A stretch of 32,000 nt of DNA, from positions 2,370,001 through 2,402,000 of the forward strand of contig OZ245049.1 in NCBI GenBank assembly GCA_965224465.1. The letters are read 5' to 3'. This stretch comes from Flavobacteriaceae bacterium. GTDB lineage: Bacteria > Bacteroidota > Bacteroidia > Flavobacteriales > Flavobacteriaceae. Below the pieces are notes generated by a model. It saw only the letters and a program-made list of their open reading frames with translations. It did not search any database and was not told the origin of the DNA. Each line of letters opens with the position of its first letter. Positions within the stretch are counted from its first letter, which is position 1. Below, piece after piece: positions 9,632 to 27,042 of this stretch. The position numbers and the translations under genes were made by a program.

Positions 9632-11881
9632 CTAAAACCAATACCCTAAATTCACATACCAAAGTTTACTATTATGGTCTGGAGACCAGGTGTAATGGAT
9701 TTCTATAGGCCCTAAAAGAGAGTCAATTCCATAACTCACCCCATAACCGTTATTTGTTGATTTTAAAATGTCATGTCCTTTATATAAATCGTTTCTAACA
9801 TTTGCCACGTTTTTAACAAAAGAAATATAATTGTCTTTAAAGATTTCGACTTGAACTTTGGCAGAACTCATTAAATAAGAATTGGCAGAAAGCTCGGCAA
9901 TTTCGTATCCATAAAACGGAATAAATTGCGGCAAATAATTAGTCCCATTTCCTCCTATAAAAAAATTGAGTGACTGGCTTGTATCCCCTCCTAAACTCAC
10001 TCCTCCAGACGTACCTAATTGTAGTGTGAATTTATCGAAAAAAGTATGGGTATATCCTAATTTCCCAAACAATTTAGAGGTCGGAAGAAAAGTATCCGCA
10101 GACTCAATTTCGTATAATTTAAAATCAGATTTCCTATCCGTGGAATACGTATGCCATACAAAATTAACATCCAATTGCCATCCTTCTTTTACAAAATGAT
10201 CCCTATCATACGTATCGTATTTTATATAACTGTAGAAATTTAGGTAATAATTATCATCAAAATAAGACTTTTCATTATTTAAACCAGGCTTTATCAAAGT
10301 CTTTGTATAGGCTTTTATGCGCTGTAATTCTGCTCCGACTCCAAATGCTAAATCGCGATCAAAAACGGTTTGAAAATAGATTTGATTCCTCATGTCTTCA
10401 TATACTAAATTAATACGTTGTACATAGTCGTTTTTGTATTTTACGTTTGTATTAAACCCATTGAGTTCGGAGCGCAAACCAAAACTCCAATAAAACCCGT
10501 TATCAATAAAATAATTCACTTTATATCTCAAATTATCTCCCAACATAAAATCAACAGAGAACAGATCGTTTTTAACAAATAAGTTTTGAGTAGTTCCATT
10601 GATCAGCACACTGGTTTTATACAGTCTATCGTAATGGACTCCTAAATTAATACTTGTTTCGATCGTAGACTCCTCTAGGTTAAAAATCAGATTCTTACCC
10701 TTATCTATTCCTGAATCTAACACTGCATAATCAATCCCTTTAAAATTTTTAGTAGCGGATAAATTATTGATGCCTGCTAATAAATCATGGTAATTTATAG
10801 AGTCGTTTTTAGTAATATTTAGTTTTCCTTTTACATATCTTTTTGTATAGTTTTTTGCTCCGAAAATAGAAATATTATCTACTACAAACACCTCTTCGTA
10901 ATTTGTTTTCTTGACTATAAGAGGTTTCTTTTTTTGTTGTAATCCTATTTTTTTTAACAGCTCAAAATGCATACGAGCAGCAATATCACCTTCCTTCATA
11001 ATCTCTATTCGCTTGTCAAAACTCACCACATCATAATTGGTCATATCTGGTTTAATATGAACATCTAAATTCTCATAATAGACTTTCTTATCACCTCCGT
11101 ACATTTGAAAACCAACAATTTGAGAGATTATTTTTACGGCAGAATCCAGGTCGTCTTTTTTATCCAATCCATCTTGTACATCCACTCCTATAACAATATC
11201 TGCCCCCATGTTTTTTACTTCATCAACAGGGAAATTATTGACAATACCACCATCCACTAACAATTTCCCATCTATTTCTACGGGGGCAAGTAAGGTTGGA
11301 AAAGCACCACTAGCACGAATCGCTTTTGCTAAAGAACCGCTATTCAATATTTCCTGAGCACCTGTTTCTAAGTTTGTCGCTACACAGAAAAACGGAATTG
11401 GTAATTTATTAAAGTCTCTAACACTATGTACGTGCTGGGTCAACTTCATAAATAAGTTCAATACATTTTGCCCTGTAGAAATAGCTACAGGAAGACCTAC
11501 TTTTCTGTTTTTGACAGGTAATTTAATCGCGTATTTCTGTCCTTCTCTTTTTTCATAAAATGATTTTGAAGACCTTGGAATGTCATCTATCATAATAGTT
11601 TCAAAATCCACACTAGCTAAAATAGAATCTAATTCTTTTGCTCTATAACCTGAAGCATACAATGCCCCCACAATAGCCCCCATACTTGTTCCCCCAACAT
11701 AATCAATACGAATTCCCGCCTCCTCAATCACTTTTATCGCTGCAATATGAGCAAATCCTTTTGCTCCTCCACCACTAAGAACCAAACCCACTTTGAGATC
11801 CTTGTCCTTAGAATAATCTTGTGCTGACAGCTGAAAAACCAACATGAAAACAACAAAGAATGGTACTAATTTGATATTCAT
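9632..11881 (-). CDS. Patatin-like phospholipase fused to an Omp85/BamA-type beta-barrel (PlpD-like, type Vd autotransporter architecture)
   Basis: Signal peptide, oxyanion motif GGGAKG, nucleophile elbow GTSMG and catalytic DGG. The C-terminal half of about 400 aa is beta-strand-rich and ends in ...NLGYWF. Confidence 0.85.
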   Translation of the reverse strand: MNIKLVPFFVVFMLVFQLSAQDYSKDKDLKVGLVLSGGGAKGFAHIAAIKVIEEAGIRIDYVGGTSMGAIVGALYASGYRAKELDSILASVDFETIMIDDIPRSSKSFYEKREGQKYAIKLPVKNRKVGLPVAISTGQNVLNLFMKLTQHVHSVRDFNKLPIPFFCVATNLETGAQEILNSGSLAKAIRASGAFPTLLAPVEIDGKLLVDGGIVNNFPVDEVKNMGADIVIGVDVQDGLDKKDDLDSAVKIISQIVGFQMYGGDKKVYYENLDVHIKPDMTNYDVVSFDKRIEIMKEGDIAARMHFELLKKIGLQQKKKPLIVKKTNYEEVFVVDNISIFGAKNYTKRYVKGKLNITKNDSINYHDLLAGINNLSATKNFKGIDYAVLDSGIDKGKNLIFNLEESTIETSINLGVHYDRLYKTSVLINGTTQNLFVKNDLFSVDFMLGDNLRYKVNYFIDNGFYWSFGLRSELNGFNTNVKYKNDYVQRINLVYEDMRNQIYFQTVFDRDLAFGVGAELQRIKAYTKTLIKPGLNNEKSYFDDNYYLNFYSYIKYDTYDRDHFVKEGWQLDVNFVWHTYSTDRKSDFKLYEIESADTFLPTSKLFGKLGYTHTFFDKFTLQLGTSGGVSLGGDTSQSLNFFIGGNGTNYLPQFIPFYGYEIAELSANSYLMSSAKVQVEIFKDNYISFVKNVANVRNDLYKGHDILKSTNNGYGVSYGIDSLLGPIEIHYTWSPDHNSKLWYVNLGYWF

Positions 11882-13686: not shown

Positions 13687-14336
13687 TAGAAAGGTTTATT
13701 TTTTATTAAATGTATCAACTAATTTCGTGTCAGAATTACCAATCAACTTATACCCACTTGATAATTAATACAGTTATGTTAACTATTTAATTAATTACTC
13801 AGGTGCATTTATACTTAAAGAGGATCAATATCCTTTTTTATACCTGTGGATCAAAACAATCTCTAAAACAGGAATTCCATTTAAGAACCTCCTCTTTTTC
13901 ATTATAATCATTTGAGTTTACATCCGCATTAAAACAGAGACTACTTGTGTTTTAATAACTTTTAGCACGCTCTTTTTTCCAAATTTATAATCTTATAAAA
14001 ATATTTTTACAACAAAAAAACAACAGCCCCCTTAAGAATTCAGTTCTAAAGCAACTCTTTCTCAAAGATACCGCATTCGATTTTTTTAATAGTAGTTTTC
14101 TTCTTTTGTTATTAATTATTCTTAATAAGCATTCAAAAGTATGAAAAAAAACTCCCTATTAAAAAAATACACGCATATTTAATGCGTTTTTCCTTACAAT
14201 AAAACACAGGATAAAGATACTGCATTTATCTAGGTAATTCAACATCCCTAAACAGCAGCTAAAAATCAAGTAAACACAGAATTCTGATTCCTTAATTAAT
14301 TAACATTATTATTCGTGAATAAATCAATAAAATAAC

Positions 14337-14344
14337 TACTTTTG
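14337..14344 (+). promoter_or_regulatory. Candidate -7 box TACTTTTG upstream of repeat copy A
   Basis: Exact TAnnTTTG match. If used, repeat A would be transcribed as part of a roughly 300-nt leader of the decarboxylase gene. Confidence 0.3.
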
Positions 14345-14419
14345 CAAAATAGTTTAAAAAAATACATAAAAAAGGGGTGTGTTTTATATAATACCTAAAA
14401 TACCAGTACAACCCAAAGC

Positions 14420-14594
14420 GTTCAGAGAATAACACCAATTACAATCCAAAATGACCTATATAAATAGTTTGTTTTACGTTCTAGCGTTGTTGAAAAACAG
14501 AGCGACAGCTAAGGCTATCCTTCCATTTTTCGCCTAGCAATAACAAAAAATAATTCGATTTCTAAACCGTCACTTGGAAAATATATTTGGTATA
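14420..14594 (+). repeat. Interspersed repeat, copy A (full length; core 14433-14594)
   Basis: Starts CACCAATTACAATCCAAAAT and ends CCGTCACTTGGAAAATATATTTGGTAT. Aligns by eye over its whole length with copies B, C, F and G. Shares an upstream GTTCAGAG with copy B. Confidence 0.9.
14559..14589 (+). promoter_or_regulatory. Promoter-like module inside the 3' end of repeat A (TTTC - 19 nt - TATATTTG)
   Basis: Perfect -7 box TATATTTG at 14582-14589. A near -33 (TTTC versus TTTG) lies at 14559-14562. The decarboxylase ATG is 64 nt downstream. Confidence 0.45.
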
Positions 14595-14652
14595 ACTCTC
14601 AAACACTAAGACAAAGCAATGGCAGGCACCCCACCTAAAATCAATTATTTAG

Positions 14653-15888
14653 ATGAAATACTGGAAAAAATTGTCTCATGACAAATTAAAGAAAAAAATT
14701 GACAAAGCCTTAAAGTCAACTGTTGATTTTCAAGAGAACTGTTACCTTGGATACCCTGTATCAAAATTAGACGAAAACGTATTTAACACTAAAGGTTCGT
14801 TTTTAAAAGAATCCCCTTTATTAAAATCATATATAGCCAATCCGAACAATATCGGATGCCATACTGTAGGAAAATCTGAATTGGCTTTTAAAGGTTCTCA
14901 AGAATTAGAAAAAGAAGTATTAGAAGTACTTGCCATAGATATATTTAAGGCAAAGAAGAACGAATATGACGGCTATATTGCCACTGGAGGAACCGAAGCT
15001 AATATCCAAGCCTTGTGGATTTACAGAAATTTATACAAAAATGATTTTGGAGCTAGCAACGACGAAATGGTTATTTTATCTTCTGAAGACACACATTATT
15101 CTGTATATAAAGGTTCAAATATCCTTAGCGTAGATGCCGTGAGTATTCCCGTAGATTTTGAGACCCGAAAAATAAATACCCAAGAACTAGATGCTATTGT
15201 AGCCAAACTTATCAAAGAAGGAAAAAAATACTTTATGGCAATTTCTAACATGGCTACTACCATGTTCGGATCTGTAGACGACCCAAATGTATATGCTGAT
15301 GTGTTTTTAAAATACAACGTGCCATTTAAAATACATATTGATGGTGCTTTTGGAGGGTTTATCTACCCTATTTCCAATTTAAAATCTCCTATTAACTTTA
15401 CAAATCCTCACATATCATCTATCACCATAGATGCACATAAAATGTTACAAGCTCCCTACGGAACAGGTGTGTTTTTATGTCGTAAAAACCTAATACAACA
15501 CGTACTCACCAAAGAAGCGAAATATGTAGACGGAATGGACTTAACCATGGTAGGAAGTAGGTCTGGCGCCAATGCCATTGCTGTTTGGATGATTTTATTT
15601 AGCTATGGATTTTATGGATGGTACGAAAAAATAAACACGTTACTTCTAAGAACCAATTGGCTATGTAAACAATTAGATGCTCTTAAAATTGATTATTACC
15701 ACGATCCTTATGTAAACATTGTAACCATCAGATCGCATCATATTACAGATAAAGTAGCCGAGAAATTTGGCTTAGTTCCAGACACTCATGATGAGAATTG
15801 CAACTGGTACAAAGTAATTATCATGGATCATGTAGAGATTGATGACTTACAAAAATTTATGACTGCTTTAAAGAAAAGCAACTCCTAA
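14653..15888 (+). CDS. Group II PLP-dependent decarboxylase (MfnA / tyrosine-aspartate decarboxylase-like); substrate unknown
   Basis: The GGTEANIQAL motif and the Schiff-base lysine context SITIDAHKMLQAPYGTG are typical of group II decarboxylases. 411 aa. Confidence 0.8.
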   Translation: MKYWKKLSHDKLKKKIDKALKSTVDFQENCYLGYPVSKLDENVFNTKGSFLKESPLLKSYIANPNNIGCHTVGKSELAFKGSQELEKEVLEVLAIDIFKAKKNEYDGYIATGGTEANIQALWIYRNLYKNDFGASNDEMVILSSEDTHYSVYKGSNILSVDAVSIPVDFETRKINTQELDAIVAKLIKEGKKYFMAISNMATTMFGSVDDPNVYADVFLKYNVPFKIHIDGAFGGFIYPISNLKSPINFTNPHISSITIDAHKMLQAPYGTGVFLCRKNLIQHVLTKEAKYVDGMDLTMVGSRSGANAIAVWMILFSYGFYGWYEKINTLLLRTNWLCKQLDALKIDYYHDPYVNIVTIRSHHITDKVAEKFGLVPDTHDENCNWYKVIIMDHVEIDDLQKFMTALKKSNS

Positions 15889-15959
15889 ATTAGGCTTCCA
15901 ATTACACGGGTTTTAACAGTTTTTTAAAAAAACTACAAATTCATTATTTACAATAAAAA

Positions 15960-15989
15960 GTACGCTTATACAAAGCGTGCTTTTTTTTT
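15960..15989 (+). terminator. Rho-independent terminator after the decarboxylase gene
   Basis: GTACGCTT (15960-15967) pairs with AAGCGTGC (15973-15980), with one wobble. A 9-T run follows (15981-15989). Confidence 0.7.
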
Positions 15990-16123
15990 ATGAAATTATT
16001 TTAACACAAAACCTCAGGCCTTCTAAATTAAATTCAAAATACTTTTTTTTGTTATTTCATGTTGCCCCATACAAGAAGGATTGCAACTTAGTTGTATTAC
16101 TTTTTAGGCTTACTTTAAAATTG

Positions 16124-16298
16124 GTTCAGAGGCGTCTACACCAATTACAATCCAAAATAACCAATATAAATGATTTATCATACGTTCTAGCATTGTTGAA
16201 AAACAGAATGATAGCTATGCTATCCATCCATTTTCCGATTAGTTAAAACAAAAAATAATTCCATTCCTAATCCGTCACTTGGAAATATATTTGGTATT
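16124..16298 (+). repeat. Interspersed repeat, copy B (full length; core 16139-16298)
   Basis: Same termini and internal blocks as copy A, and a perfect TATATTTG at 16286-16293. It explains the spurious 89-aa ORF at 15977..16246. Confidence 0.9.
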
Positions 16299-16506
16299 CC
16301 TTTTTCAACCTACTAAGCAGGGAAATTCTTATAAATATACGGCTAGACGCCAAAAAAATTTACAACTTGAACAAATCAAACTCAGGAAATAAACATAAAA
16401 AAGTATGCGTTCAGACTAATTATAAAATACTTTTTTATACTTCAAAATTCTTGTATTTTTATACGAACTAATCAAGCACTAGCTTTCTTAAACATCCCTG
16501 AAAATA

Positions 16507-17334
16507 ATGAAAAAACACTACTTCATAATAGCACTATTTTTAACAGTAATACTAAGTTGCAAGGAAACACCTTCTCAAATTATTAAATCACACGTTTATT
16601 TACAAAAGGAAGGTAAAGAGAAAAAAGATTGGAAATTAATTTGGCAAGATCATTTTAGCGAATCCAAATTAGACACAACCAAATGGTCGCTAATTCCTCC
16701 AAACAAGTCAGATTGGGGAAAACACCTAACAACTAGCAAACAATGCTATACTATTTCAGATGGAAAACTATTTTTAAAAGGAATTGTCAATCCAGATACT
16801 CTAAAAGATTCAAGACCATTTTTAACTGGAGGAATTTATTCTAAAGGGAAATTTGCCTTTCAATACGGTAAAATTGAAATACGCGCAAAGTTAGCGTCTG
16901 CTCAAGGTGCCTGGCCAGCTATATGGATGCTAGCTGAACAACATAAATATGGTGCTTACCCAAGAAATGGTGAGATTGACATTATGGAGCACCTCAACTA
17001 TGACGACATCATCTACCAAACAACACACTCCTATTATACGTTGGAGCTAAAGCAAAAAATGAATCCACCACATTATGGAACTAAAAAAGTAAATGTCGGT
17101 AAATATAACACGTATGGATTGGAATGGTATCCCGATAAATTGGTGTTTACATTAAATGATAAAACAACTTTTATATACCCAAGAATTAACGGGGTGGATT
17201 CTTCTCAATGGCCCTATGATCAACCCTTTTACATTTTAATAGACCAACAACTTGGTGGATCTTGGGTAGGAAAAGTAAATGCAGAGGAATTACCAGTTCA
17301 AATGATTATTGACTTTGTAAAAGTGTATCAATAA
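16507..17334 (+). CDS. Glycoside hydrolase family 16 lipoprotein (laminarinase/beta-glucanase-like)
   Basis: Lipobox ILSC. The GH16 catalytic motif ExDxxE is present as EIDIME. The concanavalin-like fold signature WPAIWM is also present. Confidence 0.85.
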   Translation: MKKHYFIIALFLTVILSCKETPSQIIKSHVYLQKEGKEKKDWKLIWQDHFSESKLDTTKWSLIPPNKSDWGKHLTTSKQCYTISDGKLFLKGIVNPDTLKDSRPFLTGGIYSKGKFAFQYGKIEIRAKLASAQGAWPAIWMLAEQHKYGAYPRNGEIDIMEHLNYDDIIYQTTHSYYTLELKQKMNPPHYGTKKVNVGKYNTYGLEWYPDKLVFTLNDKTTFIYPRINGVDSSQWPYDQPFYILIDQQLGGSWVGKVNAEELPVQMIIDFVKVYQ

Positions 17335-17485
17335 TTTCATAATAAAAGGGATTTAATTCAGTGGAACAAGCTATTTAAACCACCTTAACATGTTGTTTTC
17401 CTGAATAGAAGTTTACAATTCACACGCCTTAGCACAACACAAATTTATTGTTCTAACACCTATTTAACCTTTTAATCTAATGTTA

Positions 17486-17609
17486 CACCAATTGCAATCC
17501 AAAATAACCGTTATAAATAGTTTGTTTTACGTTCTAGGGTTGTTAAAAAACAGAACGATAACAAAGGCTATCCTTAGTTATTTCGCCTAGCTAAAACAAA
17601 AAATAATTA
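17486..17609 (+). repeat. Interspersed repeat, copy C (3'-truncated; lacks the CCGTCACTTGG module)
   Basis: About 87% identical to copy A by hand alignment over 124 nt. It ends 6 nt before the stop codon of the arsP-like gene. Confidence 0.85.
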
Positions 17610-17614
17610 CATCT

Positions 17615-18592
17615 TTACAATAAAATATTAAACACATACCCCGATATCATAATACAGATAGTAACTACACTAAAAAAGATGGCGATCAATTGTAAACTCA
17701 TTACTTTTTTTAACAACAGAGCTTCAGGCAAGGAAAGTCCAATCACACCCATCATAAAAGCAATGGCAGTTCCTAAGGGAATTCCTTTAGCTACCAACAC
17801 TTGTACCACGGGTAATATACCTGATGCACCCGCATACATTGGAACACCCAAAACAGTAGCTATAGGTACAGACCACCAGTTCTCTTTACCCATATATTGC
17901 TCAAAAAAACCTGTAGGAACATACCCATGCATCAAGGCACCAACAGCCAATCCAACCAAAACATAAAGAACAATTCCTTTTAATATAGAAGTAGTTTCTG
18001 ACCAAATAAAAGGCAGACGATTTCTAAAAGACCTGTGTTTTTGTGAAAAACCTTCCGTTTCTTTCGTGGCGTTTATCAATACGTCTTGCACCCAGGGACT
18101 CAAGTATTTTTCCAATTTTAATTGCTGTAAAAACATTCCAGAAAACGTACCTAAAAGCACACCTATCACCACATAAATCACCGTAGTTTTTACACCAAAC
18201 AAACCAATAAATAAACCGATAGCTACTTCGTTAACCAATGGTGAGGTTATCAAAAAGGAAAACGTGACTCCCAAAGGAATTCCACCTTTTACAAAACCTA
18301 TAAATAAGGGTACAGAGGAACAAGAGCAAAAAGGGGTGACTACTCCAAACAGGGAAGACATCAAATACTCAAAACCATATAATTTTTTTCGAGAGAGGTA
18401 ATTACGCACTTTTTCTACAGGAAAATAACTATTTACAATCCCCATAAAAAAGATAATCACAAAAATAAGTAGCATTATTTTAATACTATCGAAAATAAAA
18501 AAGTTGAGTGCCTTTCCGAAACTACTCGTTATATGGATGTCAAAAACATCAAATACCAGCCAATCTGCAAACTTTTGTAACCAATTAAACAT
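17615..18592 (-). CDS. ArsP-like permease (PF03773-type predicted permease)
   Basis: 325-aa polytopic protein with the TPFCSCS motif in a TM segment. As I recall, this motif characterises organoarsenical efflux permease ArsP. It is the last gene of the ars cluster. Confidence 0.7.
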   Translation of the reverse strand: MFNWLQKFADWLVFDVFDIHITSSFGKALNFFIFDSIKIMLLIFVIIFFMGIVNSYFPVEKVRNYLSRKKLYGFEYLMSSLFGVVTPFCSCSSVPLFIGFVKGGIPLGVTFSFLITSPLVNEVAIGLFIGLFGVKTTVIYVVIGVLLGTFSGMFLQQLKLEKYLSPWVQDVLINATKETEGFSQKHRSFRNRLPFIWSETTSILKGIVLYVLVGLAVGALMHGYVPTGFFEQYMGKENWWSVPIATVLGVPMYAGASGILPVVQVLVAKGIPLGTAIAFMMGVIGLSLPEALLLKKVMSLQLIAIFFSVVTICIMISGYVFNILL

Positions 18593-18605
18593 AGCTCTTT
18601 ACTTA

Positions 18606-19640
18606 TTATTTTACGTAGAAACGTTTTTTCAAATACAAGGAAATATTTACTAATAAAATAAGCACTGGAACTTCCACTAAGGGACCTATAACTCCTGTAA
18701 ATGCTTGAGGAGAATTCAATCCAAATATTGCAATAGCAACAGCTATTGCTAATTCAAAATTATTTCCCGTAGCAGTAAATGCCACCGATGCATTCCGTTT
18801 ATAATCAATCCCCATAGCTTTCCCTAGAAAGAAACTCACAAAAAACATCACCATAAAATAAATAACAAGAGGTACAGCTATGCGGAATACATCCCTCGGG
18901 ATTTCCAATATCATATCACCTTTTAAACTAAACATCAATACAATAGTTGCCAATAATGCAATCAATGTAATCGGGGAAATAAAAGGAATAAAGGTATGAT
19001 TGTACCAGTCTATTCCTTTGAGTCTCACCAAGTACTTTCGACTTAAAAAACCTGCTAAAAACGGCAATCCAAGATAAATAAGAACACTCTTCGCTACTTC
19101 CCATACAGAGATAGTCACATCAAACCCTTCTACTCCAAAATAAGGAGGCAATACCGTAATAAACAACCATGCATAAAAGCTATAAGTAAACATCTGAAAA
19201 ACACTATTCAAAGCTATTAGTGTCGCACTATATTCACGAGAGCCTCCTGCCATATCGTTCCAAACAATCACCATAGCAATACAACGTGCCAGTCCTATCA
19301 GAATAACTCCAGACATATATCCTGGGTAATCTCTTAGAAAAACAACAGCCAATACAAACATCAAAATAGGCCCCACTATCCAGTTTAAAAACAAAGACAT
19401 GGTCATTAATTTGGTATCTTTAAGTACCGTAGGAATTAAGCTGTAATCAACTTTTGCTAATGGCGGATACATCATTAATAACAGTCCTATTGCTAAAGGG
19501 ATATTGGTAGTCCCAACAGTCAAAGATTCCGTTAGATTTTTAATGCTTGGAAAAACATAACCGAATCCTACCCCAATAGCCATCGCTAAAAAAATCCATA
19601 AGGTTAAATAACGATCTAAAAATTTTAATCTTGTTTTCAT
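18606..19640 (-). CDS. acr3: ACR3 family arsenite efflux transporter
   Basis: N-terminus [17 protein letters not shown] and the conserved Cys context GLARCIAMV are typical of ACR3/ArsB(Acr3). Confidence 0.9.
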
Positions 19641-19676
19641 AAGTAAGTATTGAAAATTGAATAGTGAATAGTGAAA

Positions 19677-20156
19677 TTAACAACAGTCACTTCCACTGCA
19701 TGACTCCTTGTTTGTATCACTCGTAGGGGCACAGCAAACATCTAATGCTTTACACCTAGAATCCACCAAAGCCAAATTTACAAGTAACCTTTGATAATTT
19801 ACATCCAAAGAAGCTACCGACATAACCGATGTATGAAATTGCGCATTGCCATATTCAAATTTTATTTCAGTCTCCATTAATAATGGCTTGACTTGGTTTA
19901 CTCGCTTAAATATAGCCAATGCTTTCTCCGATTTCAAATAAGTCCTTTTCTCTAATTCTGTAGGACTTTCCCATAATTGAACAATGGTTTCTTGCCAATA
20001 ATTAGGAGTACCTCCACAATCTACTGTGTCAAAAGTAACATTCTTAATTTCGGTGATGTGATAATTAGCCCCAACCAATTCTCCCTCTTGGTATTGAAAC
20101 ACCAATTCTTTATTAATATGAGCAGCTAATTGTTGTATAAATTCGTTTGTTTTCAT
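19677..20156 (-). CDS. DUF6428-like ars-associated protein with a Cys-rich C-terminal tail
   Basis: I prefer the start at MKTNEFIQQLAAH (20156). The longer ORF (to 20240) would overlap the upstream gene. The protein ends ...CKALDVCCAPTSDTNKESCSGSDCC. The family assignment is from memory of Bacteroidetes ars clusters. Confidence 0.6.
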   Translation of the reverse strand: MKTNEFIQQLAAHINKELVFQYQEGELVGANYHITEIKNVTFDTVDCGGTPNYWQETIVQLWESPTELEKRTYLKSEKALAIFKRVNQVKPLLMETEIKFEYGNAQFHTSVMSVASLDVNYQRLLVNLALVDSRCKALDVCCAPTSDTNKESCSGSDCC

Positions 20157-20209
20157 AAGTGCGTATTTAGTAGTGATTAGTAATAACGGGCAGTAAAATT
20201 CCTTAAGAA

Positions 20210-20503
20210 TTAACAACAAGAAGTAGCTCCTCCACAACAAGGAGTATCCATAGCCTCATTGGCTAAAATAGCTACTAATAGATTTTTACATTCCTCTTTT
20301 GAAGGAACTTTTCCTGACAAAACTACTTTATCATCAACCACAATAGCAGGAGTACTCATTACATCATACTTCATTATTTGCTGTATATCTTCTACTTTTA
20401 TAACAGAGACTTCTATACTTAATTCAGTAACCAACTCTTTAACTATCGCTTCTGTAGCTTTACAATTTGCACAGCCAGTTCCTAATATTTTTATTGTTTT
20501 CAT
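20210..20503 (-). CDS. Thioredoxin-fold protein (redox-active disulfide protein 2 type) with a Cys-rich tail
   Basis: Start at MKTIKILGTGCANC, which carries the CxxC. The 28-codon upstream extension looks non-coding. The C-terminus reads ...DTPCCGGATSCC. Confidence 0.75.
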   Translation of the reverse strand: MKTIKILGTGCANCKATEAIVKELVTELSIEVSVIKVEDIQQIMKYDVMSTPAIVVDDKVVLSGKVPSKEECKNLLVAILANEAMDTPCCGGATSCC

Positions 20504-20629
20504 AGTATCCTTTTTAATAATTACACATAATTCGTAAACATTCGTCAAAATAAACCTTGTGTCAAACCTCCTGGCTTTCCCCAACAAAGATTGTCCTGTT
20601 TGTTACCCTCCTGTTTCTAACTGGCATTA

Positions 20630-20703
20630 CATCAATTAATACACAAAATAATCGATATAAATAATTCTTTTTCTAAACCGTCACTTGGAAATTTAATTGG
20701 AAT
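20630..20703 (+). repeat. Interspersed repeat, mini copy D (internally deleted; both termini retained)
   Basis: CATCAATTAATACACAAAATAATCGATATAAATA matches about 30/38 of the 5' end of the consensus. It is joined directly to AATTCTTTTTCTAAACCGTCACTTGGAAATTTAATTGGAAT, the 3' module. The copy overlaps the arsR stop codon. Confidence 0.75.
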
Positions 20704-21044
20704 TACTCTTCACAACTTCCCATACAGCAATTTTTATCAAAAAAATGACTGAATAGCTCCCTTGCTTTACTCCAATTTTCGGTATGGATGCAATATCTAA
20801 TTTTAGGCGCTTCTACTTGCCCCTGTATTAAGCCTGCCGATTTTAATTCTTTTAAATGTTGAGATATCGTAGACTGAGCCAATTGCAATACAGTTACCAA
20901 TTCACCCGTATAACAGCAACTTTGACTGGACAAATAATTTAAAATCTTAAGCCTAGCAGGATGCCCTAATGCTTTTGCATACTTTGCCAGTAGTTCTGTT
21001 TCTACTAAATAATTCACCTTTTGATTAGTTCGCTGTATACTCAT
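20703..21044 (-). CDS. arsR: ArsR/SmtB family metalloregulator
   Basis: Winged-HTH protein with a CC pair in the metal-site helix (SQSCCYTGELV) and a Cys-rich tail (NCCMGSCEE). The ATG at 21044 (MSIQRTN) is preferred. The ORF-track start at 21056 is a TTG codon. Confidence 0.85.
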   Translation of the reverse strand: MSIQRTNQKVNYLVETELLAKYAKALGHPARLKILNYLSSQSCCYTGELVTVLQLAQSTISQHLKELKSAGLIQGQVEAPKIRYCIHTENWSKARELFSHFFDKNCCMGSCEE

Positions 21045-21248
21045 AGTTAATCGCAAATATACGATTGATATTTATAAAGATACGTGTTTTTTCTATTAAA
21101 TTTTAAAATGATATTTAAAAGCAGGTGAATTAAGAAATGAACGCCGCATCTCTTTTTTAAATTTTCCTCCTGTAAAACCTTTCCTATTCTAGTGAAAAAA
21201 AAGCCAAAAACTCCGGGAGATTACACCCTAACTAAACGTCAAATTTCA

Positions 21249-22163
21249 CTAAAAGATAGAAGTCTCTAAGTCCGTAGTAAATGCTTCTAAAAACAGAATA
21301 CCTTTATAAGAATTCCCTTTCAAATTGAGTTTTGGACTCCATACAGCAATACTATATTGATGAGGATGAACAGCAATAATACCCCCACCAACACCACTTT
21401 TCCCAGGCAAACCTACCTTGAAAGAAAACTCACCAGCTTCGTCATAGAAACCACATAATTGCATTATAGCATTGATTCGTTTGGACATACTGGGACAAAT
21501 AACCGTCTCTTTAGTTGTGGGATTTACACCATTATTAGCTAAATATAAAAAAGTAGTTGAAAGCTCTTTACACGTCATTTCAATAGAACAGAGATTGTAA
21601 TATAAATCCAATACTTCCGATACATCGTTGTGTATATTTCCATACGATTTCATTAAATTTACTAAGGCGGCATTACAGAAGCCTGTTTCTTTTTCAGAAG
21701 CCTGAATGCGTGGACAAAAATCAATTTTGTGATTGTTTGATACCGAACGAATAAAATTTAATAATTCCTGTTTCGGATTTTTATAATGACTTATCAATAC
21801 ATCAATAATTACCAAAGCACCACCATTGACTAGGGGATTACGTGGAATTCCTTTATTGTGTTCTAATTGCACTAAGGAATTAAATGAAGTTCCCGAAGGC
21901 TCCACACCAACACGTTTCCATAAATTCTCACCTTCCAATTTATAAGCCATAGTAAGAGACAACACTTTTGCAATACTCTGTATAGAAAACGTAACATTGG
22001 AATCACCAAAACTAGAATTCTGATTATCAATCGTCGTCAAATGAACCCCGAATTTAGAGGGGTCTACATTGTTTAATTCTGGAATATAACTTGCAACACG
22101 CCCTAAATCTGGAGAGCTTTGTAAATCAAAGAAGATTTCTGAAAATAAATTTGAATAATTCAT
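21249..22163 (-). CDS. glsA: Glutaminase A
   Basis: 304-aa serine-dependent beta-lactamase-like fold with S-x-x-K (SIQSIAKV). Glutaminase signatures ...PRNPLVNGGAL... and GLPGKSGVGGGI are present. Confidence 0.9.
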   Translation of the reverse strand: MNYSNLFSEIFFDLQSSPDLGRVASYIPELNNVDPSKFGVHLTTIDNQNSSFGDSNVTFSIQSIAKVLSLTMAYKLEGENLWKRVGVEPSGTSFNSLVQLEHNKGIPRNPLVNGGALVIIDVLISHYKNPKQELLNFIRSVSNNHKIDFCPRIQASEKETGFCNAALVNLMKSYGNIHNDVSEVLDLYYNLCSIEMTCKELSTTFLYLANNGVNPTTKETVICPSMSKRINAIMQLCGFYDEAGEFSFKVGLPGKSGVGGGIIAVHPHQYSIAVWSPKLNLKGNSYKGILFLEAFTTDLETSIF

Positions 22164-22214
22164 AGGAGCTAAATTTCTCCTATAAAATTAGGCAATTTAT
22201 AGCTGAAAAAGATG

Positions 22215-22266
22215 ATTAAAATCAGGATGAATACCATTTATAACTGTCACTTGGAAATGTATTTAA
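22215..22266 (+). repeat. Interspersed repeat, mini/partial copy E
   Basis: CCATTTATAACTGTCACTTGGAAATGTATTT matches the 3' module. The preceding ATTAAAATCAGGATGAATA weakly resembles the 5' end of copy G. It lies 52 nt upstream of the divergent glsA start. Confidence 0.6.
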
Positions 22267-22823
22267 CATTAGATAGAAATGATAATACGATAGATGCATT
22301 GCCAACTTTAAAACAAAACGGATTAAAAACTGACACTCATTAAAAGCCCTTCTTAAATAAAGACAAACCAAGGATACAATAATACTTCCGAAAGAATATT
22401 TTCTATTGTACAATTAAACCCGCCATCTATAATTAAAAATCATTTTAAAAAAAAATTAATACTTACATCAATTCTCTCACAATAAACCTTGAGGAATGTA
22501 GTTTAAACAAAGGAAACAAGAACAAAAAGACATCCCTAAATCATCTTTCAAAAACAACCGTATGATTTATAAAAAACCTAATAAAGACAAGAGACCTAAC
22601 CAGAATCATAAACAACAAGTACCATTTTAATTGATTAAATAACATTAGATCCCACCGAAACAAAACAATAAAACCCAAAGATTAACAGTACGTATCAATC
22701 ATTCAACCACATACAATTCAACAACAAAATAGCACCAGATTTATTTGGTATTCAAAAATCAAAATAACGTATCCCCAATACTTGAACGATACGATTTAAA
22801 TTAACAACCATTAACTATAAAAC

Positions 22824-23687
22824 ATGAAGTACAAACTATTATTTGCTATTGCCTTATTATTGACAATAGTATCCTGTGAAAAATCTAATATAGAAGAAGA
22901 TCTACCAACAAAAACTGATAAAACTGACCCTAAAGATGACGGCGCAAAAACAGATGTTTTGATTTTGAATACCATCATCAAGTCTATTGACAAAGCTCCT
23001 GAAAAATTTACTAAAAAATTCCTAATTGAAGACTATACTGCTACATGGTGCTATCTCTGTCCAAAAATGACGGAAGCTATAGAAAAAGCTATGAAGACGT
23101 ATCCAGACATCGCTTATAACATCAATATCCACTCGTCTAACGGTGGGGACCCCTATGGAAATGCCATCACAAAAGCATTACAAGTTAAGAATGATGTCAC
23201 AGGATTTCCAAGAAGCTATTTAGACCGTAAAGATAGATATGGAGTTAACAGTAGAAATTATATTGAAATTGACATAAAAAAAGAGCTAAACAAAAACTAT
23301 TACTTAGGTCTAGGAATACAAACAAGCCTCAAAGAAAAAACATTAAAAGGCTATTTTGAATATGCAATAAACAAGGACATAACAGAGGAATTAACCTATA
23401 CCATATACATTACCGAAAGCGGGCTAGAACATCAGCAAGAAGGGTCTGCTACAGGCATAGCATCTCAAGATAATCTATTGAGAGAACGACTAACAAATGT
23501 ACACGGAGATGCTATTCCAACTGACAAACAGGCTAAAAATACCGTATATAAAATGGCTTTTGAACATGTATTTGAATCTGAAATAGTCTTAGAAAACAGC
23601 AATATCGTAGTATTCATTTCAAATAAAGAAGGAACAGTAATTAACATCCAACAAGTAAAAATTGGAGACAACAAAGCATTTGACTAA
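22824..23687 (+). CDS. Lipoprotein with an N-terminal thioredoxin-like CxxC region (Omp28-related type)
   Basis: Lipobox TIVSC and the motif YTATWCYLCP. The family name is from memory, so function confidence is low. Confidence 0.6.
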   Translation: MKYKLLFAIALLLTIVSCEKSNIEEDLPTKTDKTDPKDDGAKTDVLILNTIIKSIDKAPEKFTKKFLIEDYTATWCYLCPKMTEAIEKAMKTYPDIAYNINIHSSNGGDPYGNAITKALQVKNDVTGFPRSYLDRKDRYGVNSRNYIEIDIKKELNKNYYLGLGIQTSLKEKTLKGYFEYAINKDITEELTYTIYITESGLEHQQEGSATGIASQDNLLRERLTNVHGDAIPTDKQAKNTVYKMAFEHVFESEIVLENSNIVVFISNKEGTVINIQQVKIGDNKAFD

Positions 23688-23764
23688 ATAGTTATTTAGA
23701 AAATTATTTGAAATAATCTTACGATCTCTAAAAAAGAATCTGTGAAATTCTTATCAACACCTTT

Positions 23765-23804
23765 GAACAACCAAGTATCGTTTTCCATGCTTGGTTGTTC
23801 TTTT
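23765..23804 (+). terminator. Rho-independent terminator
   Basis: GAACAACCAAG (23765-23775) pairs perfectly with CTTGGTTGTTC (23790-23800). TTTT follows. Confidence 0.7.
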
Positions 23805-23903
23805 ATAAATCATACGTACTTATAAAAATAGCATACGCAACACGTAAACAAACTCCAAAAAAAGAACAGGAGCCTACCAGCAACCAAAACAAATAAAACA
23901 CCG

Positions 23904-24389
23904 ATGAAAAAAATATTAACCCTAGCTACCTGCTGCTTTATAGCAACAAGTATCTACGCACAAAAAATGCCTGATATCCCACTAAAAACACTGAGTGGAT
24001 CAACTGTATTAGCCTCAGAGTTAAGTACTGGTAAAGGCCCCATACTCGTAACATTCTGGGCTACTTGGTGCAGTCCTTGCATACAAGAGCTCGATGCATT
24101 AAACGACGAGTATATTGACTGGGAAGAGGAAACAGGTGTTAAAATAGTAGCCATCGCTACAGACGATGCTCGGAGTCAATCTAGAGTTAAAATACTCAGT
24201 AATGGCAAGGGTTGGGAATTTGACATTTACAAAGACGACAACCAAGAACTTAAAAGAGCTTTGGGAATAACAACAATTCCGTTTACCTGTATTTTGGATG
24301 CAAAAGGAACTATTATTTGGAAACATACAGGATACACTCCTGGCAGCGAAACAGATATTATCGAATTTTTAAGAACCTTAAAAAAATAA
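23904..24389 (+). CDS. TlpA/ResA-like periplasmic thiol:disulfide oxidoreductase
   Basis: Signal peptide, FWATWCSPC active site and AhpC/TSA-like length (161 aa). Confidence 0.85.
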   Translation: MKKILTLATCCFIATSIYAQKMPDIPLKTLSGSTVLASELSTGKGPILVTFWATWCSPCIQELDALNDEYIDWEEETGVKIVAIATDDARSQSRVKILSNGKGWEFDIYKDDNQELKRALGITTIPFTCILDAKGTIIWKHTGYTPGSETDIIEFLRTLKK

Positions 24390-24392
24390 ATA

Positions 24393-25988
24393 GTGATGAA
24401 AAATTCAATCTTATTTCTGATCTTCATAGTGTGCTCATTTTCGACTACATTGGAAGCACAAATATTTAACCACCATAATTTAACGGGTAGTTTAGAAACG
24501 AATAACAAATATTATTTTGACGACAATTTAACAGGCGCAGAACGTCCTTCAGGTAACTTTGGCTCTAATAGCTATTTACAACTAAATTACACGAGCGGAA
24601 AAATAAGTACTGGACTGCAATACGAAGCCTATTTACCCCCTTTATTGGGTTATAATTCTAAATATGACCACAGTGACATCACACACAAATACCTAACATA
24701 TAGAGATAAAAAACTAACATTCACTGTCGGAAATTTTTACGAACAATTTGGTAGTGGATTACTATTTAGAGCATGGGAAGATCGTCAATTAGGGCTCAAT
24801 AACTCGATTGAGGGCATCAATATACATTTTAAACCAACAGATTATATCTATTTAAAAGCTGTTTACGGAAAACAACGAACTTACTTTACAACGGCAGATT
24901 CGAAGATAAGGGGTATCGATGCAGAAATATATATAAATCAGCATCATAAAACAAACATAAACATTGGCTTAGGAATTATACAACGTTATGAAGCCTATAC
25001 GGGGGCCCTCAAAGATTTTCCGGAAACCACCACCGCCTACTCTGGACGTATGAACCTACGTAGTGGAATTGTAGATCTTAGTTGTGAATATGTTTACAAA
25101 GGAAAAGACGGTATCCTATTCGGAAAAGCAATAAGTTCCGAAGGAAGTGCACTCTTGATAAACAATAGCTATAGTTTTTACGGTTTTGGCGCAAATATAT
25201 CCTTACGAAGACTCGAAAACATGAACTTTAGAGGAATGCAAAAAGCAAGTAACAATGAGCTTTTATTAAATTACCTACCTAGCAATACCAAGCAACAAAC
25301 GTACAGCTTAGCATCTCTTCACCCCTATGCAACAGTATCCATGGGAGAAATAGGCGGGCAACTAGATTTGTACTACACCTTAAAACGAAACAGCTCCTTA
25401 GGAGGTAAATACGGAACTCAAATTGCATTTAACTTTTCTAAATATTTTAAATTAGAAGGAAAAACAAGCCAAGAATCTTATTATACAGAAAGTAGTTTTA
25501 TACCACAAAACCCAACTGCTTTATACTACAATTACAACTTAGAACTAAAAAAGAAATGGAGTAAACGGTTTAAATCTAGCCTGAGTTACATCAAACAAAT
25601 GTATAATAAAACCGAATTAGAAGGAACGCAGTACGAGATTATTAAAAGTGATATTATTGCGGCAAATCTACTGTTTACATTCAACAATAGAAACAGTTTA
25701 AAAATAGAGTTGCAGCATCTATCAAGTCAAGATGACGACAAAAACTGGGCATCGACACTTTTAGAATTTAGCACTGCCAAAAGGTGGTCTCTATATGCTA
25801 GTGACATGTATAATTACGGAAAAACAAACATCCATTATACAAATTTCGGAATTGCTTACAACAAGGGAACAAGCCGAATGGAATTTAGTTATGGAAGACA
25901 ACGAAAAGGTTTAATCTGCGTAGGTGGTGTCTGTAGACTGGTACCTGCCGCTACTGCCCTATCCTTTAATCTTAGTAAAACCTTTTAA
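24393..25988 (+). CDS. Predicted outer-membrane beta-barrel protein (DUF6029-like)
   Basis: Signal peptide, an alternating beta-strand pattern rich in Y/G/N, and a C-terminal aromatic residue (...LSKTF). It starts 4 nt after the TlpA stop, which suggests co-translation as one unit. Confidence 0.6.
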   Translation: MMKNSILFLIFIVCSFSTTLEAQIFNHHNLTGSLETNNKYYFDDNLTGAERPSGNFGSNSYLQLNYTSGKISTGLQYEAYLPPLLGYNSKYDHSDITHKYLTYRDKKLTFTVGNFYEQFGSGLLFRAWEDRQLGLNNSIEGINIHFKPTDYIYLKAVYGKQRTYFTTADSKIRGIDAEIYINQHHKTNINIGLGIIQRYEAYTGALKDFPETTTAYSGRMNLRSGIVDLSCEYVYKGKDGILFGKAISSEGSALLINNSYSFYGFGANISLRRLENMNFRGMQKASNNELLLNYLPSNTKQQTYSLASLHPYATVSMGEIGGQLDLYYTLKRNSSLGGKYGTQIAFNFSKYFKLEGKTSQESYYTESSFIPQNPTALYYNYNLELKKKWSKRFKSSLSYIKQMYNKTELEGTQYEIIKSDIIAANLLFTFNNRNSLKIELQHLSSQDDDKNWASTLLEFSTAKRWSLYASDMYNYGKTNIHYTNFGIAYNKGTSRMEFSYGRQRKGLICVGGVCRLVPAATALSFNLSKTF

Positions 25989-25993
25989 GTTTG

Positions 25994-26151
25994 ACACCAA
26001 ATACATTTCCAAATGACGGTTTAGAAATGAAATTACTATTTGTTTTTAAGCAAGTGAAAATGGATGGATAGCATAGCTATCGTTCTGTTTTTCAACTACG
26101 CTAGAACGTAAAATAAAATATTATATCGGTTATTTTGGTTTGTAATTGGTC
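25994..26151 (-). repeat. Interspersed repeat, copy F (full length, inverted orientation)
   Basis: The reverse complement reads GACCAATTACAAACCAAAATAACCGATATAAT...CCGTCATTTGGAAATGTATTTGGTGT. The copy begins 6 nt after the stop of the beta-barrel gene. Confidence 0.9.
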
Positions 26152-26248
26152 TAAGTTCAGAATAGCATACATTTTTAGAATCTTTATCCTTTTAATCTAC
26201 GTCTATTCAAAAGTATAAAAAAAAGGTTCTAAAAGTGTATTATATTTT

Positions 26249-26397
26249 ACACCTAATGCATTTACAGATAACGGTTTAGAAATGGAATTAATATTTATTT
26301 TATCTAGGCAAATACTCTAAGGATAGCCTTATCGTTCTATTTTTTAACGACGTTAGAACGTAAGATAAACTATTTATATCGTTCATTTTAATTACAG
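26249..26397 (-). repeat. Interspersed repeat, copy G (full length but degenerate termini, inverted orientation)
   Basis: The reverse complement aligns from AAAATGAACGATATAAATAG through CCATTTCTAAACCGTTATCTGTAAATGCATTAGGTGT. It lies in tandem with copy F, 49 nt downstream of lspA. Confidence 0.85.
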
Positions 26398-26445
26398 TAC
26401 CCACAAAAAGTAAATAGCTTTAACAACGCTGTTTCACATCAGAAA

Positions 26446-27042
26446 CTAGGTCTTAGGAAAAATCCGTTTATTAAAAAGAATCATTAGGGTAACCCCCATA
26501 GAAATAGCACTGTCGGCAATGTTAAAAATAGCATTGAAAAAAGTAAATTCTCTCCCTCCAAAATAAGGAATCCAAGAAGGCAAATCCACCGTAAAAAAAG
26601 GGAAATACAACATATCTACCACTTTACCGTGAAAAAGAGACCCATAAGGTTGGTCTGCAAATAACGTAGCTGTTTCTCTAAAAGGAGTATCAAAAATAAT
26701 TCCATAAAAAACAGAATCAATAATATTCCCTACTGCACCAGCAAAAATCATAGACACCGCAATAATTAGGATTTTATGCGTACCTTTTTTAATAGAAGTA
26801 AACAACCAATATCCAATACCAGAGATAGCGACCAAGCGGAATAATGTTAAAAATAATTTCCCTGTTTTTCCACCAAACTCAGCTCCCCATGCCATGCCAT
26901 TATTTTCAATAAAACGAATTTTGAACCATTCAAAAACAACTACTTCACCAGCACTTCCCATCAAGAAATTGGTTTTGATATAGATTTTACTAATTTGATC
27001 AATTAATAAAATAAGAACGATGATAATGATTGATTTTTTCAA
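26446..27042 (-). CDS. lspA: Lipoprotein signal peptidase II
   Basis: 198-aa 4-TM protein with the conserved regions ...NNGMAWG... and ...FNIADSAI.... Confidence 0.9.
   Translation of the reverse strand: MKKSIIIIVLILLIDQISKIYIKTNFLMGSAGEVVVFEWFKIRFIENNGMAWGAEFGGKTGKLFLTLFRLVAISGIGYWLFTSIKKGTHKILIIAVSMIFAGAVGNIIDSVFYGIIFDTPFRETATLFADQPYGSLFHGKVVDMLYFPFFTVDLPSWIPYFGGREFTFFNAIFNIADSAISMGVTLMILFNKRIFPKT

Follow-up and report, generated by a model that had tools for sequence, protein, structure and literature searches.

MITEs are non-autonomous elements of about 50-1000 bp that have no transposase gene or other conserved open reading frame. In bacteria they include ERIC, Correia (NEMIS) and RUP, which are shorter than about 200 bp and A+T-rich, carry terminal inverted repeats and are accompanied by target-site duplications (PMC2229807). 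Their transcripts fold as one long stem-loop through pairing of the 5' and 3' ends (PMC2229807). In Porphyromonas gingivalis, the terminal repeats of the MITEs BrickBuilt, MITE239/PgRS and MITE293/700 match resident IS5-family elements, and there are 10-20 copies per genome, many of them partial (PMC4596501). A further group that bears on what follows is formed by the PIF/Harbinger elements, for which a 3-bp duplication is described (PMC2213677).

Here, we describe an interspersed repeat in a 32,000-nt stretch of DNA from a marine member of the Flavobacteriaceae (the window, by which we mean the whole stretch that was analysed). The window is A+T-rich (30-37% G+C) and carries housekeeping genes of a Bacteroidota/Flavobacteriaceae chromosome, amongst them uvrC, ileS, lspA, the genes for RNase G and glutaminase, and an ars operon. 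An earlier note, made from the letters alone, had seen in the repeat a rod of nested helices and left two explanations side by side: a structured RNA or MITE-like inverted termini. We consider it very likely that this is a MITE-type element, transposable but non-autonomous, which measures about 158-160 bp, codes for nothing and has given rise to a 73-bp deletion derivative. It represents a new family of bacterial MITE, like ERIC, Correia and RUP elements in its architecture, within a class that is itself well known.

The same seven copies were obtained by repeat finding, by BLAST and by a profile search, and they all lie between 14.4 and 26.4 kb of the window. Four are of full length, one is without its 3' quarter, one has lost internal sequence and one is a fragment of the 3' end. 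Copy A (14433-14592, plus strand, 160 bp, CACCAAT...TTTGGTA) sits inside the conserved 5' leader of a PLP-decarboxylase gene, and copy B (16139-16296, plus strand, full length, 158 bp) lies between the terminator of that gene and a GH16 gene that is specific to the window. Copy C (17486-17609, plus strand) is without roughly the 3' quarter; its intact 5' end points toward the GH16 gene and its broken end abuts the stop codon (17615-17617) of an ArsP-type permease gene. Copy D (20630-20702, plus strand), found between arsR and a thioredoxin-like gene, is a 73-bp derivative in which an internal deletion, with its junction at an AAATA microhomology, has left both termini in place. Fragment E (22231-22268, plus strand) consists only of the 3' terminal 38 bp or so; at its broken end it adjoins the promoter region of the glutaminase gene, which is conserved, and its intact end, followed by TTA (22269-22271), faces a window-specific Omp28 block. 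The last two copies are on the minus strand. Copy F (25995-26151, full length, 157 bp) has its 3' end 6 nt past the stop codon of the DUF6029 gene (last base 25988); copy G (26250-26393), the 5' terminus of which is degenerate or missing, follows the stop codon of lspA at a distance of about 50 nt and is arranged head to tail with copy F across a spacer of about 98 nt. The coordinates and sequence features of the repeat that the earlier note had described are all present, at or within 1-2 nt of the positions it gave.

The long copies (A, B, C, F and G) are 73-87% identical to one another, and none overlaps a credible gene. The element, at 157-160 bp, has a base composition of 37% A, 32% T, 18% C and 12% G. 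The longest open reading frame in copy A would encode 28 amino acids, and its ATG is missing in copy B; a small-protein reading was rejected on the grounds that this frame is not conserved. The gene context varies from copy to copy: A lies in a 5' leader, B between co-directional genes and D antisense inside the ars operon, and C, F and G lie between convergent genes. An eighth copy, also between convergent genes, was found by scanning GTDB genomes with a degenerate core pattern. It belongs to the Flavobacteriaceae MAG NORP129 (contig L001:5381-5539, minus strand), follows a purF-like gene and is 83-89% identical to the window copies (88.6% to copy A). Across the window copies and that of NORP129, neither orientation nor position is constant relative to promoters, terminators or host genes. 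Beyond the NORP129 copy, the scan of GTDB genomes returned one chance match only. In metagenomes and viral contigs, the core pattern found no copy and a 3' pattern only a chance match in coding sequence; blastn found nothing in plasmids, in phages or, with copy A as the query, in 5,426 complete E. coli genomes.

The two ends of the element resemble one another. The terminal consensus is 5'-YACCAATTA...TAATTGGTR-3', and one half of the element is an imperfect inverted repeat of the other. Ungapped, the termini match at 11-14 of 20 positions, and the family profile also recognises itself on the reverse strand (E = 2e-5 to 8e-3). Each full copy is an imperfect palindrome, either strand of which is able to fold into one long rod, and the NORP129 copy is the most regular palindrome of all. 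The individual helices drawn in the earlier note were found again. In copy A, ACCAA (14434-38) pairs with TTGGT (14587-91), an outer helix that is paired in 100% of cells; the second helix, TCCAA/TTGGA, changes to CCAAA/TTTGG in copy F; the long-range helix, TTTGTTTTA/TAAAACAAA, has an A-T pair in copy G, as had been said; and the GATAGC..GCTATC hairpin is present. When the five helices were written onto a six-copy alignment, 90.3% of the pair cells held standard pairs, against 38-49% when the 3' partners were slid by 1-3 columns, so that the register of the helices is specific, far beyond chance. The other central hairpin, CGTT..AACG, likewise exists, together with its variant CATT..AATG in copy B, but it is not confirmed as the central fold; it competes with a longer stem of the rod, GAAAAACAGA/TCCATTTTTC, which encloses the GATAGC/GCTATC hairpin. 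This hairpin and the central rod stem are mutually exclusive local folds, and one double change favours each.

Evidence on how the element came to be where it is comes from its absence in relatives. Contigs with a glutaminase 85-88% identical to that of the window are syntenic with the locus and share the gene order ileS-dksA-lspA-glutaminase-arsR-trx-DUF6428-ACR3-arsP-decarboxylase-uvrC-patatin-RNase G; in these relatives, no copy of the repeat occurs anywhere in the shared locus. The site of copy A is empty in one of them, L005, as a precise gap between flanks that are about 90% identical (GAGA-ATAAC-[ACCAAT...TTTGGT]-ATAAC-TCTC in the window; GAGA-TTCCT-TCTC in L005). The site of copy D is empty in L005, L006 and L007, again as a precise gap, the end of arsR running directly into the spacer. 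The site of the NORP129 copy is empty in L012, L013 and L014, which have PurF proteins 95-96% identical. At this last site, L001 reads GCGTAT-TAA-[TATCAATT...AATTGGTA]-TAA-GAAG and L012 reads GCGTAC-TAA-GGAG, so that L012 has a single TAA, the purF stop codon, where L001 has two. Empty sites, which the earlier note had said would support a mobile-DNA explanation, are thus on record for three copies (A, D and NORP129).

The same three copies are flanked by short direct repeats. Copy A lies between two TAA triplets (14430-14432 and 14593-14595), which form part of a longer direct repeat, ATAAC (14429-14433 and 14592-14596); copy D lies between two TTA triplets (20627-20629 and 20703-20705), extending to ATTAC (20626-20630 and 20702-20706), with the right-hand TTA being the complement of the arsR stop codon TAA; and the NORP129 copy lies between TAA and TAA, with no extension to 5 bp. 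At copy D, it is the stop codon (TAA) of arsR that has been duplicated, and at the NORP129 copy that of purF. The flanks of copy B (CTA/TTC) and of copy F (TTA/TCA) do not match, and these copies may be older or rearranged. Target-site duplications, of which the earlier note had seen a possible case at copy A only, are perfect at A, D and NORP129 and absent at B and F. When all the ends are aligned, the similarity between the inverted repeats reaches as far as Y-A-C-C-A-A, and the next three bases are T-W-A on both sides. These triplets are read as a duplication because the middle base agrees across the two sides within each of A, D and NORP129, whereas inverted-repeat symmetry on its own predicts TTA to the left and TAA to the right. 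A duplication of 3 bp is favoured, possibly of 5 bp; a 2-bp (TA) model was rejected, as it does not fit the flanks. It should be noted that L014 has TAG-TAA in tandem downstream of purF (10115-10130), at the site of the NORP129 insertion. This could mean that L014 shows the ancestral state and that the NORP129 element inserted without any duplication, or that L014 carries an excision footprint.

Dispersal, inverted termini, absence from the corresponding sites of relatives, flanking duplications and a deletion derivative together make up the support for mobility observed here. The MITE assignment follows from the small, A+T-rich and non-coding character of the element, its inverted termini, the T-W-A duplications, the empty sites, the truncated copies and the 73-bp derivative. 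Of the two explanations in the earlier note, it is the MITE-like one that is supported, with empty sites at three copies, short duplications at those same copies and a derivative that keeps both termini. On this basis, the life of the element may be pictured as follows. Its terminal inverted repeats would be bound by a DDE-type transposase acting in trans from a gene elsewhere in the genome, and the element would be transposed by cut-and-paste or copy-and-paste. The A/T-rich sites used for insertion would have the form T-W-A, with the TAA that ends a gene being a frequent case, and 3 bp of this sequence, or possibly as many as 5, would be duplicated. The mobilising IS would be expected to have ends matching 5'-YACCAATTACAATCC around its transposase gene, and to be IS5/Harbinger-like if the duplication is TWA; within the window, neither a transposase nor a full-length IS with matching termini was found. 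A copy co-transcribed with a neighbouring gene would form a long RNA hairpin as a consequence of the palindrome, and this hairpin may incidentally affect mRNA processing or termination.

The copies are found in a part of the chromosome that differs from that of the relatives in other ways. Only two gene blocks of the window are absent from the syntenic relatives, and both fall within the same 12 kb as all seven copies. One is the GH16 glycoside hydrolase block (about 15990-17609) and the other is the block encoding Omp28, a TlpA-like thioredoxin and DUF6029 (about 22272-25995); each is missing from all of the syntenic relatives and is bordered by copies. The closest foreign DUF6029 proteins are 69% and then about 52-54% identical, and the named ones amongst these are from Marinifilaceae, a family placed in a different order. 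Judged from these sequence comparisons, the distribution suggests that both blocks may have been acquired horizontally. The contig that carries the closest DUF6029 homologue (69% identical) is without any copy of the repeat. As a separate observation, about 550 bp of A-rich sequence with no open reading frame (22272-22823) lies between fragment E and the Omp28-like gene and has no counterpart in the relatives. Copy C, which comprises the 5' three quarters of the element, and fragment E, which comprises the 3' quarter, have the same orientation and complementary break points, and their broken ends face the interval 17610-22230. Exactly between them lies a segment of 4.6 kb, from arsP to the glutaminase gene, for which relatives show synteny; this suggests that C and E are a single copy, split by rearrangement or insertion. 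An extension of the same argument is that the copies serve as breakpoints and as portable homology for gaining and reshuffling gene blocks, with the G.U-rich rod of the complement strand co-opted as an RNA insulator or terminator at gene ends. We regard this extension as unlikely.

Two further observations concern the decarboxylase gene. Its 5' leader (14340-14428 and 14597-14652) is more than 90% identical to that of L005, and the rest of the intergenic region can barely be aligned. Two complementary segments, GGGGTG (14374-79) and CACCCC (14629-34), could pair with each other across the likely start codon (14620); copy A has been inserted in the middle of the leader. The leader may be regulatory; it has no Rfam match. 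After the gene, there is a strong terminator hairpin (15955-15985) that is conserved in L005 and L006, and to which a weak, sub-threshold Rfam match to 'Thr_leader' (15851-15989) can be attributed.

Next in order is the other explanation of the earlier note, namely that the repeat is a family of structured RNAs: an sRNA gene, or a cis-acting hairpin for mRNA stability, processing or termination, the rod being under selection at the RNA level and mobility being secondary or ancient (a domesticated MITE). We consider this improbable, although the folding is real. On the strand read in the earlier note, copies A, B and F fold modestly better than dinucleotide shuffles (z = -1.7, -1.9 and -2.6, respectively). 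On the complement strand, they form a single end-to-end rod that is far more stable than the shuffles (z = -4.1, -5.8 and -4.2), and the NORP129 copy gives z = -6.25 on the complement strand and -5.45 on the other; the fold of copy G is not significant (z = -0.85). In the consensus fold, the complement strand forms 55 pairs and the other strand 14. The complement-strand rod keeps 90% of its pair cells, and its percentage paired is reached by 5 of 500 shuffles, a value that is, however, also reached by 5-25% of unconstrained alignments. The difference between the strands arises because mismatches read as G.U on the complement strand and as A.C on the strand of the earlier note. That note had taken G-T wobbles to favour a structure at the RNA level. 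Most of them prove to be on the opposite strand: with the arms aligned as DNA in five copies that share ancestry, there are 37 wobble-type mismatches on the complement strand and 17 on the strand of the note. Composition alone predicts a ratio of 1.67:1, the forward strand being A+C-rich, and the asymmetry is for this reason not evidence of selection on an RNA.

The compensatory changes exist as described, and amount to only two pairs in the six-copy alignment, one in the CGTT/AACG hairpin (copy B) and one in the long-range helix (copy G); what does not stand is any excess over controls, since 104 of 500 shuffles do as well. When the first hairpin is replaced by the continuous central stem, the double changes are matched by 350 of 500 shuffles, and for the RNAalifold rod on the complement strand by 342 of 500. 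Thus, the G-C to A-U exchanges that might speak for a selected RNA, one in the central stem and one in the hairpin of the earlier note, are within what shuffling yields: two double-change pairs compare with a shuffled mean of 1.0-2.0, in a test of 5-6 sequences that has low power. Covariation is not demonstrated. In addition, Rfam gave no match at the gathering score and, within 14000-27000, none on any copy at E values up to 10; no tRNA or tmRNA genes were found; and a sigma-70 promoter scan was at or below shuffle expectation, using a model that is unsuited to Bacteroidota promoters.

There is some circumstantial evidence in favour of an RNA. Copies often follow directly upon stop codons, and those in two different genomes are still 83-89% identical. 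The central GATAGC..GCTATC hairpin, with its flanking runs of A and T, scored as terminator-like on both strands (14504-14519, 16210-16224 and 26067-26081). As a terminator, however, it is weak at best, with a T run that starts 5-6 nt after a stem of no more than 6 bp. Against a dedicated RNA is also the fact that the transcribed strand may vary with the copy, copies A, B and NORP129 being sense to the neighbouring gene and D antisense in the ars operon, and that broken copies persist (C, D, E and G are truncated, internally deleted or degenerate). The structured-RNA explanation is disfavoured: covariation does not exceed that of shuffles, Rfam has no match, orientation is inconsistent and the best fold is found not on the strand for which the structure had been proposed but on its complement. 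The hairpin in the RNA comes with the palindromic sequence, and nothing here shows selection for it or that the repeat is a functional RNA. Such a hairpin is a property of the class rather than evidence for a dedicated RNA gene, because the transcripts of published MITEs fold likewise (PMC2229807). It is nevertheless plausible that individual copies have incidental effects on the mRNAs with which they are co-transcribed.

It could also be argued that a tyrosine (HUH) transposase moved a hairpin element in single-stranded form, as a RAYT-mobilised REPIN or a palindrome derived from IS200/IS605. The TTAC-like left flank would then be a target or cleavage site and not one side of a duplication. 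The left flanks are indeed close to a fixed short motif (ATAAC, TCTAC, GTTAC, CTTAG and ATTAC) that is reminiscent of TTAC, the target of IS608, and the two strands of the element, which is a single long hairpin, differ in their ability to fold. We nonetheless judge this proposal improbable. The flanking triplet co-varies between the two sides (TAA/TAA in copy A, TTA/TTA in copy D), as a duplication predicts and as a fixed target joined to a fixed end would not. The ends are inverted repeats of one another, and separate subterminal hairpins of the kind present in IS200/IS605 were not seen. The fold of copy A in single-stranded DNA is not significantly more stable than that of shuffles (z = -0.79), and neither a RAYT nor a TnpA gene was found in the window. 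An A+T-rich element of 160 bp is, moreover, unlike REPs, which are 20-40 bp long and G+C-rich, with a GTAG or CGTC head (PMC3733652). Finally, the suggestion that the copies are recombination sites of a gene-cassette system (integron attC-like) bounding the GH16 and Omp28/DUF6029 blocks would fit with imperfect palindromes of about 160 bp, with the A-gene-B-gene-C series in one orientation and with the copies bordering two blocks that relatives do not have, but is largely refuted and exceedingly improbable: there is no GTTRRRY or RYYYAAC at the ends of A, B, F or G, no integrase was found in the window, A, D and the NORP129 copy were inserted solo with no gene along, and the left edge of the GH16 block falls about 150 bp before copy B, away from the repeat boundary.

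With a MITE as the preferred explanation, the finding leaves the current understanding of such elements unchanged; its value lies in annotation and in the history of the genome. It keeps these repeats from being labelled as a novel RNA. The copies mark recent insertions, one of them in a conserved 5' leader and another in an ars operon, and the 12-kb stretch is a place where copies of a mobile element coincide with blocks that appear to have been acquired horizontally, which is of interest with regard to genome plasticity. The cataloguing of MITE families in marine Flavobacteriaceae is poor. Repeat masking and strain typing would benefit from the description of one with a T-W-A target, which could also point to an active transposase.

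It remains to place the element amongst known systems. It shares with REPINs (about 100 nt) an interspersed, non-coding nature and one long hairpin. In contrast to the short, G+C-rich REPs with a GTAG or CGTC head and no target duplication (PMC3733652), it is A+T-rich, 160 bp long and accompanied by flanking duplications, and the window has no RAYT gene. The P. gingivalis MITEs are closer, being non-autonomous, intergenic and from the same phylum (PMC4596501). Their terminal repeats, GAGACCTTTGCA, are nevertheless unrelated to YACCAATTA, and BrickBuilt differs further in having an internal 23-nt minisatellite, no palindrome over its whole length and duplications of variable length (PMC4596501).

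Tourist-like MITEs and the PIF/Harbinger-IS5 superfamily resemble the element in that short terminal inverted repeats are flanked by 3 bp of duplicated target, TAA or TTA. A 3-bp duplication is the hallmark of the superfamily (PMC2213677). In PIF/Harbinger elements it is TWA, and some bacterial groups of the IS5 family have 2-4-bp duplications around TA. These families are mainly eukaryotic, and neither an IS5-like transposase nor a matching terminal repeat was found here. The similarity concerns the duplication alone, and is best taken as a possible lead to the transposase rather than as a test; a duplication of 5 bp would point to another IS family.

The elements with which the repeat compares best are ERIC, Correia and RUP. 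It differs from them in sequence, to which it has no similarity (blastn with copy A gave no match in 5,426 E. coli genomes, which carry ERIC, a repeat with a 127-bp consensus), and in its host, which is from a different phylum (Bacteroidota, Flavobacteriaceae). Their duplication is the dinucleotide TA, whereas here it is T-W-A, of 3 bp or possibly 5, and RUP has been linked to IS630-Spn1, whereas the mobilising transposase is here putative. The architecture is otherwise the same: 100-200 bp, A+T-rich and non-coding, with terminal inverted repeats (PMC2229807), TA-containing termini and, at three of the copies here, a short target-site duplication (PMC2229807). Correia elements, which exist in 155-bp and 107-bp forms, also have internal-deletion variants (PMC2229807), as copy D exemplifies here. 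As in all three, the copies are intergenic, often lie just past genes, and have a transcript that would form one long stem-loop (PMC2229807).
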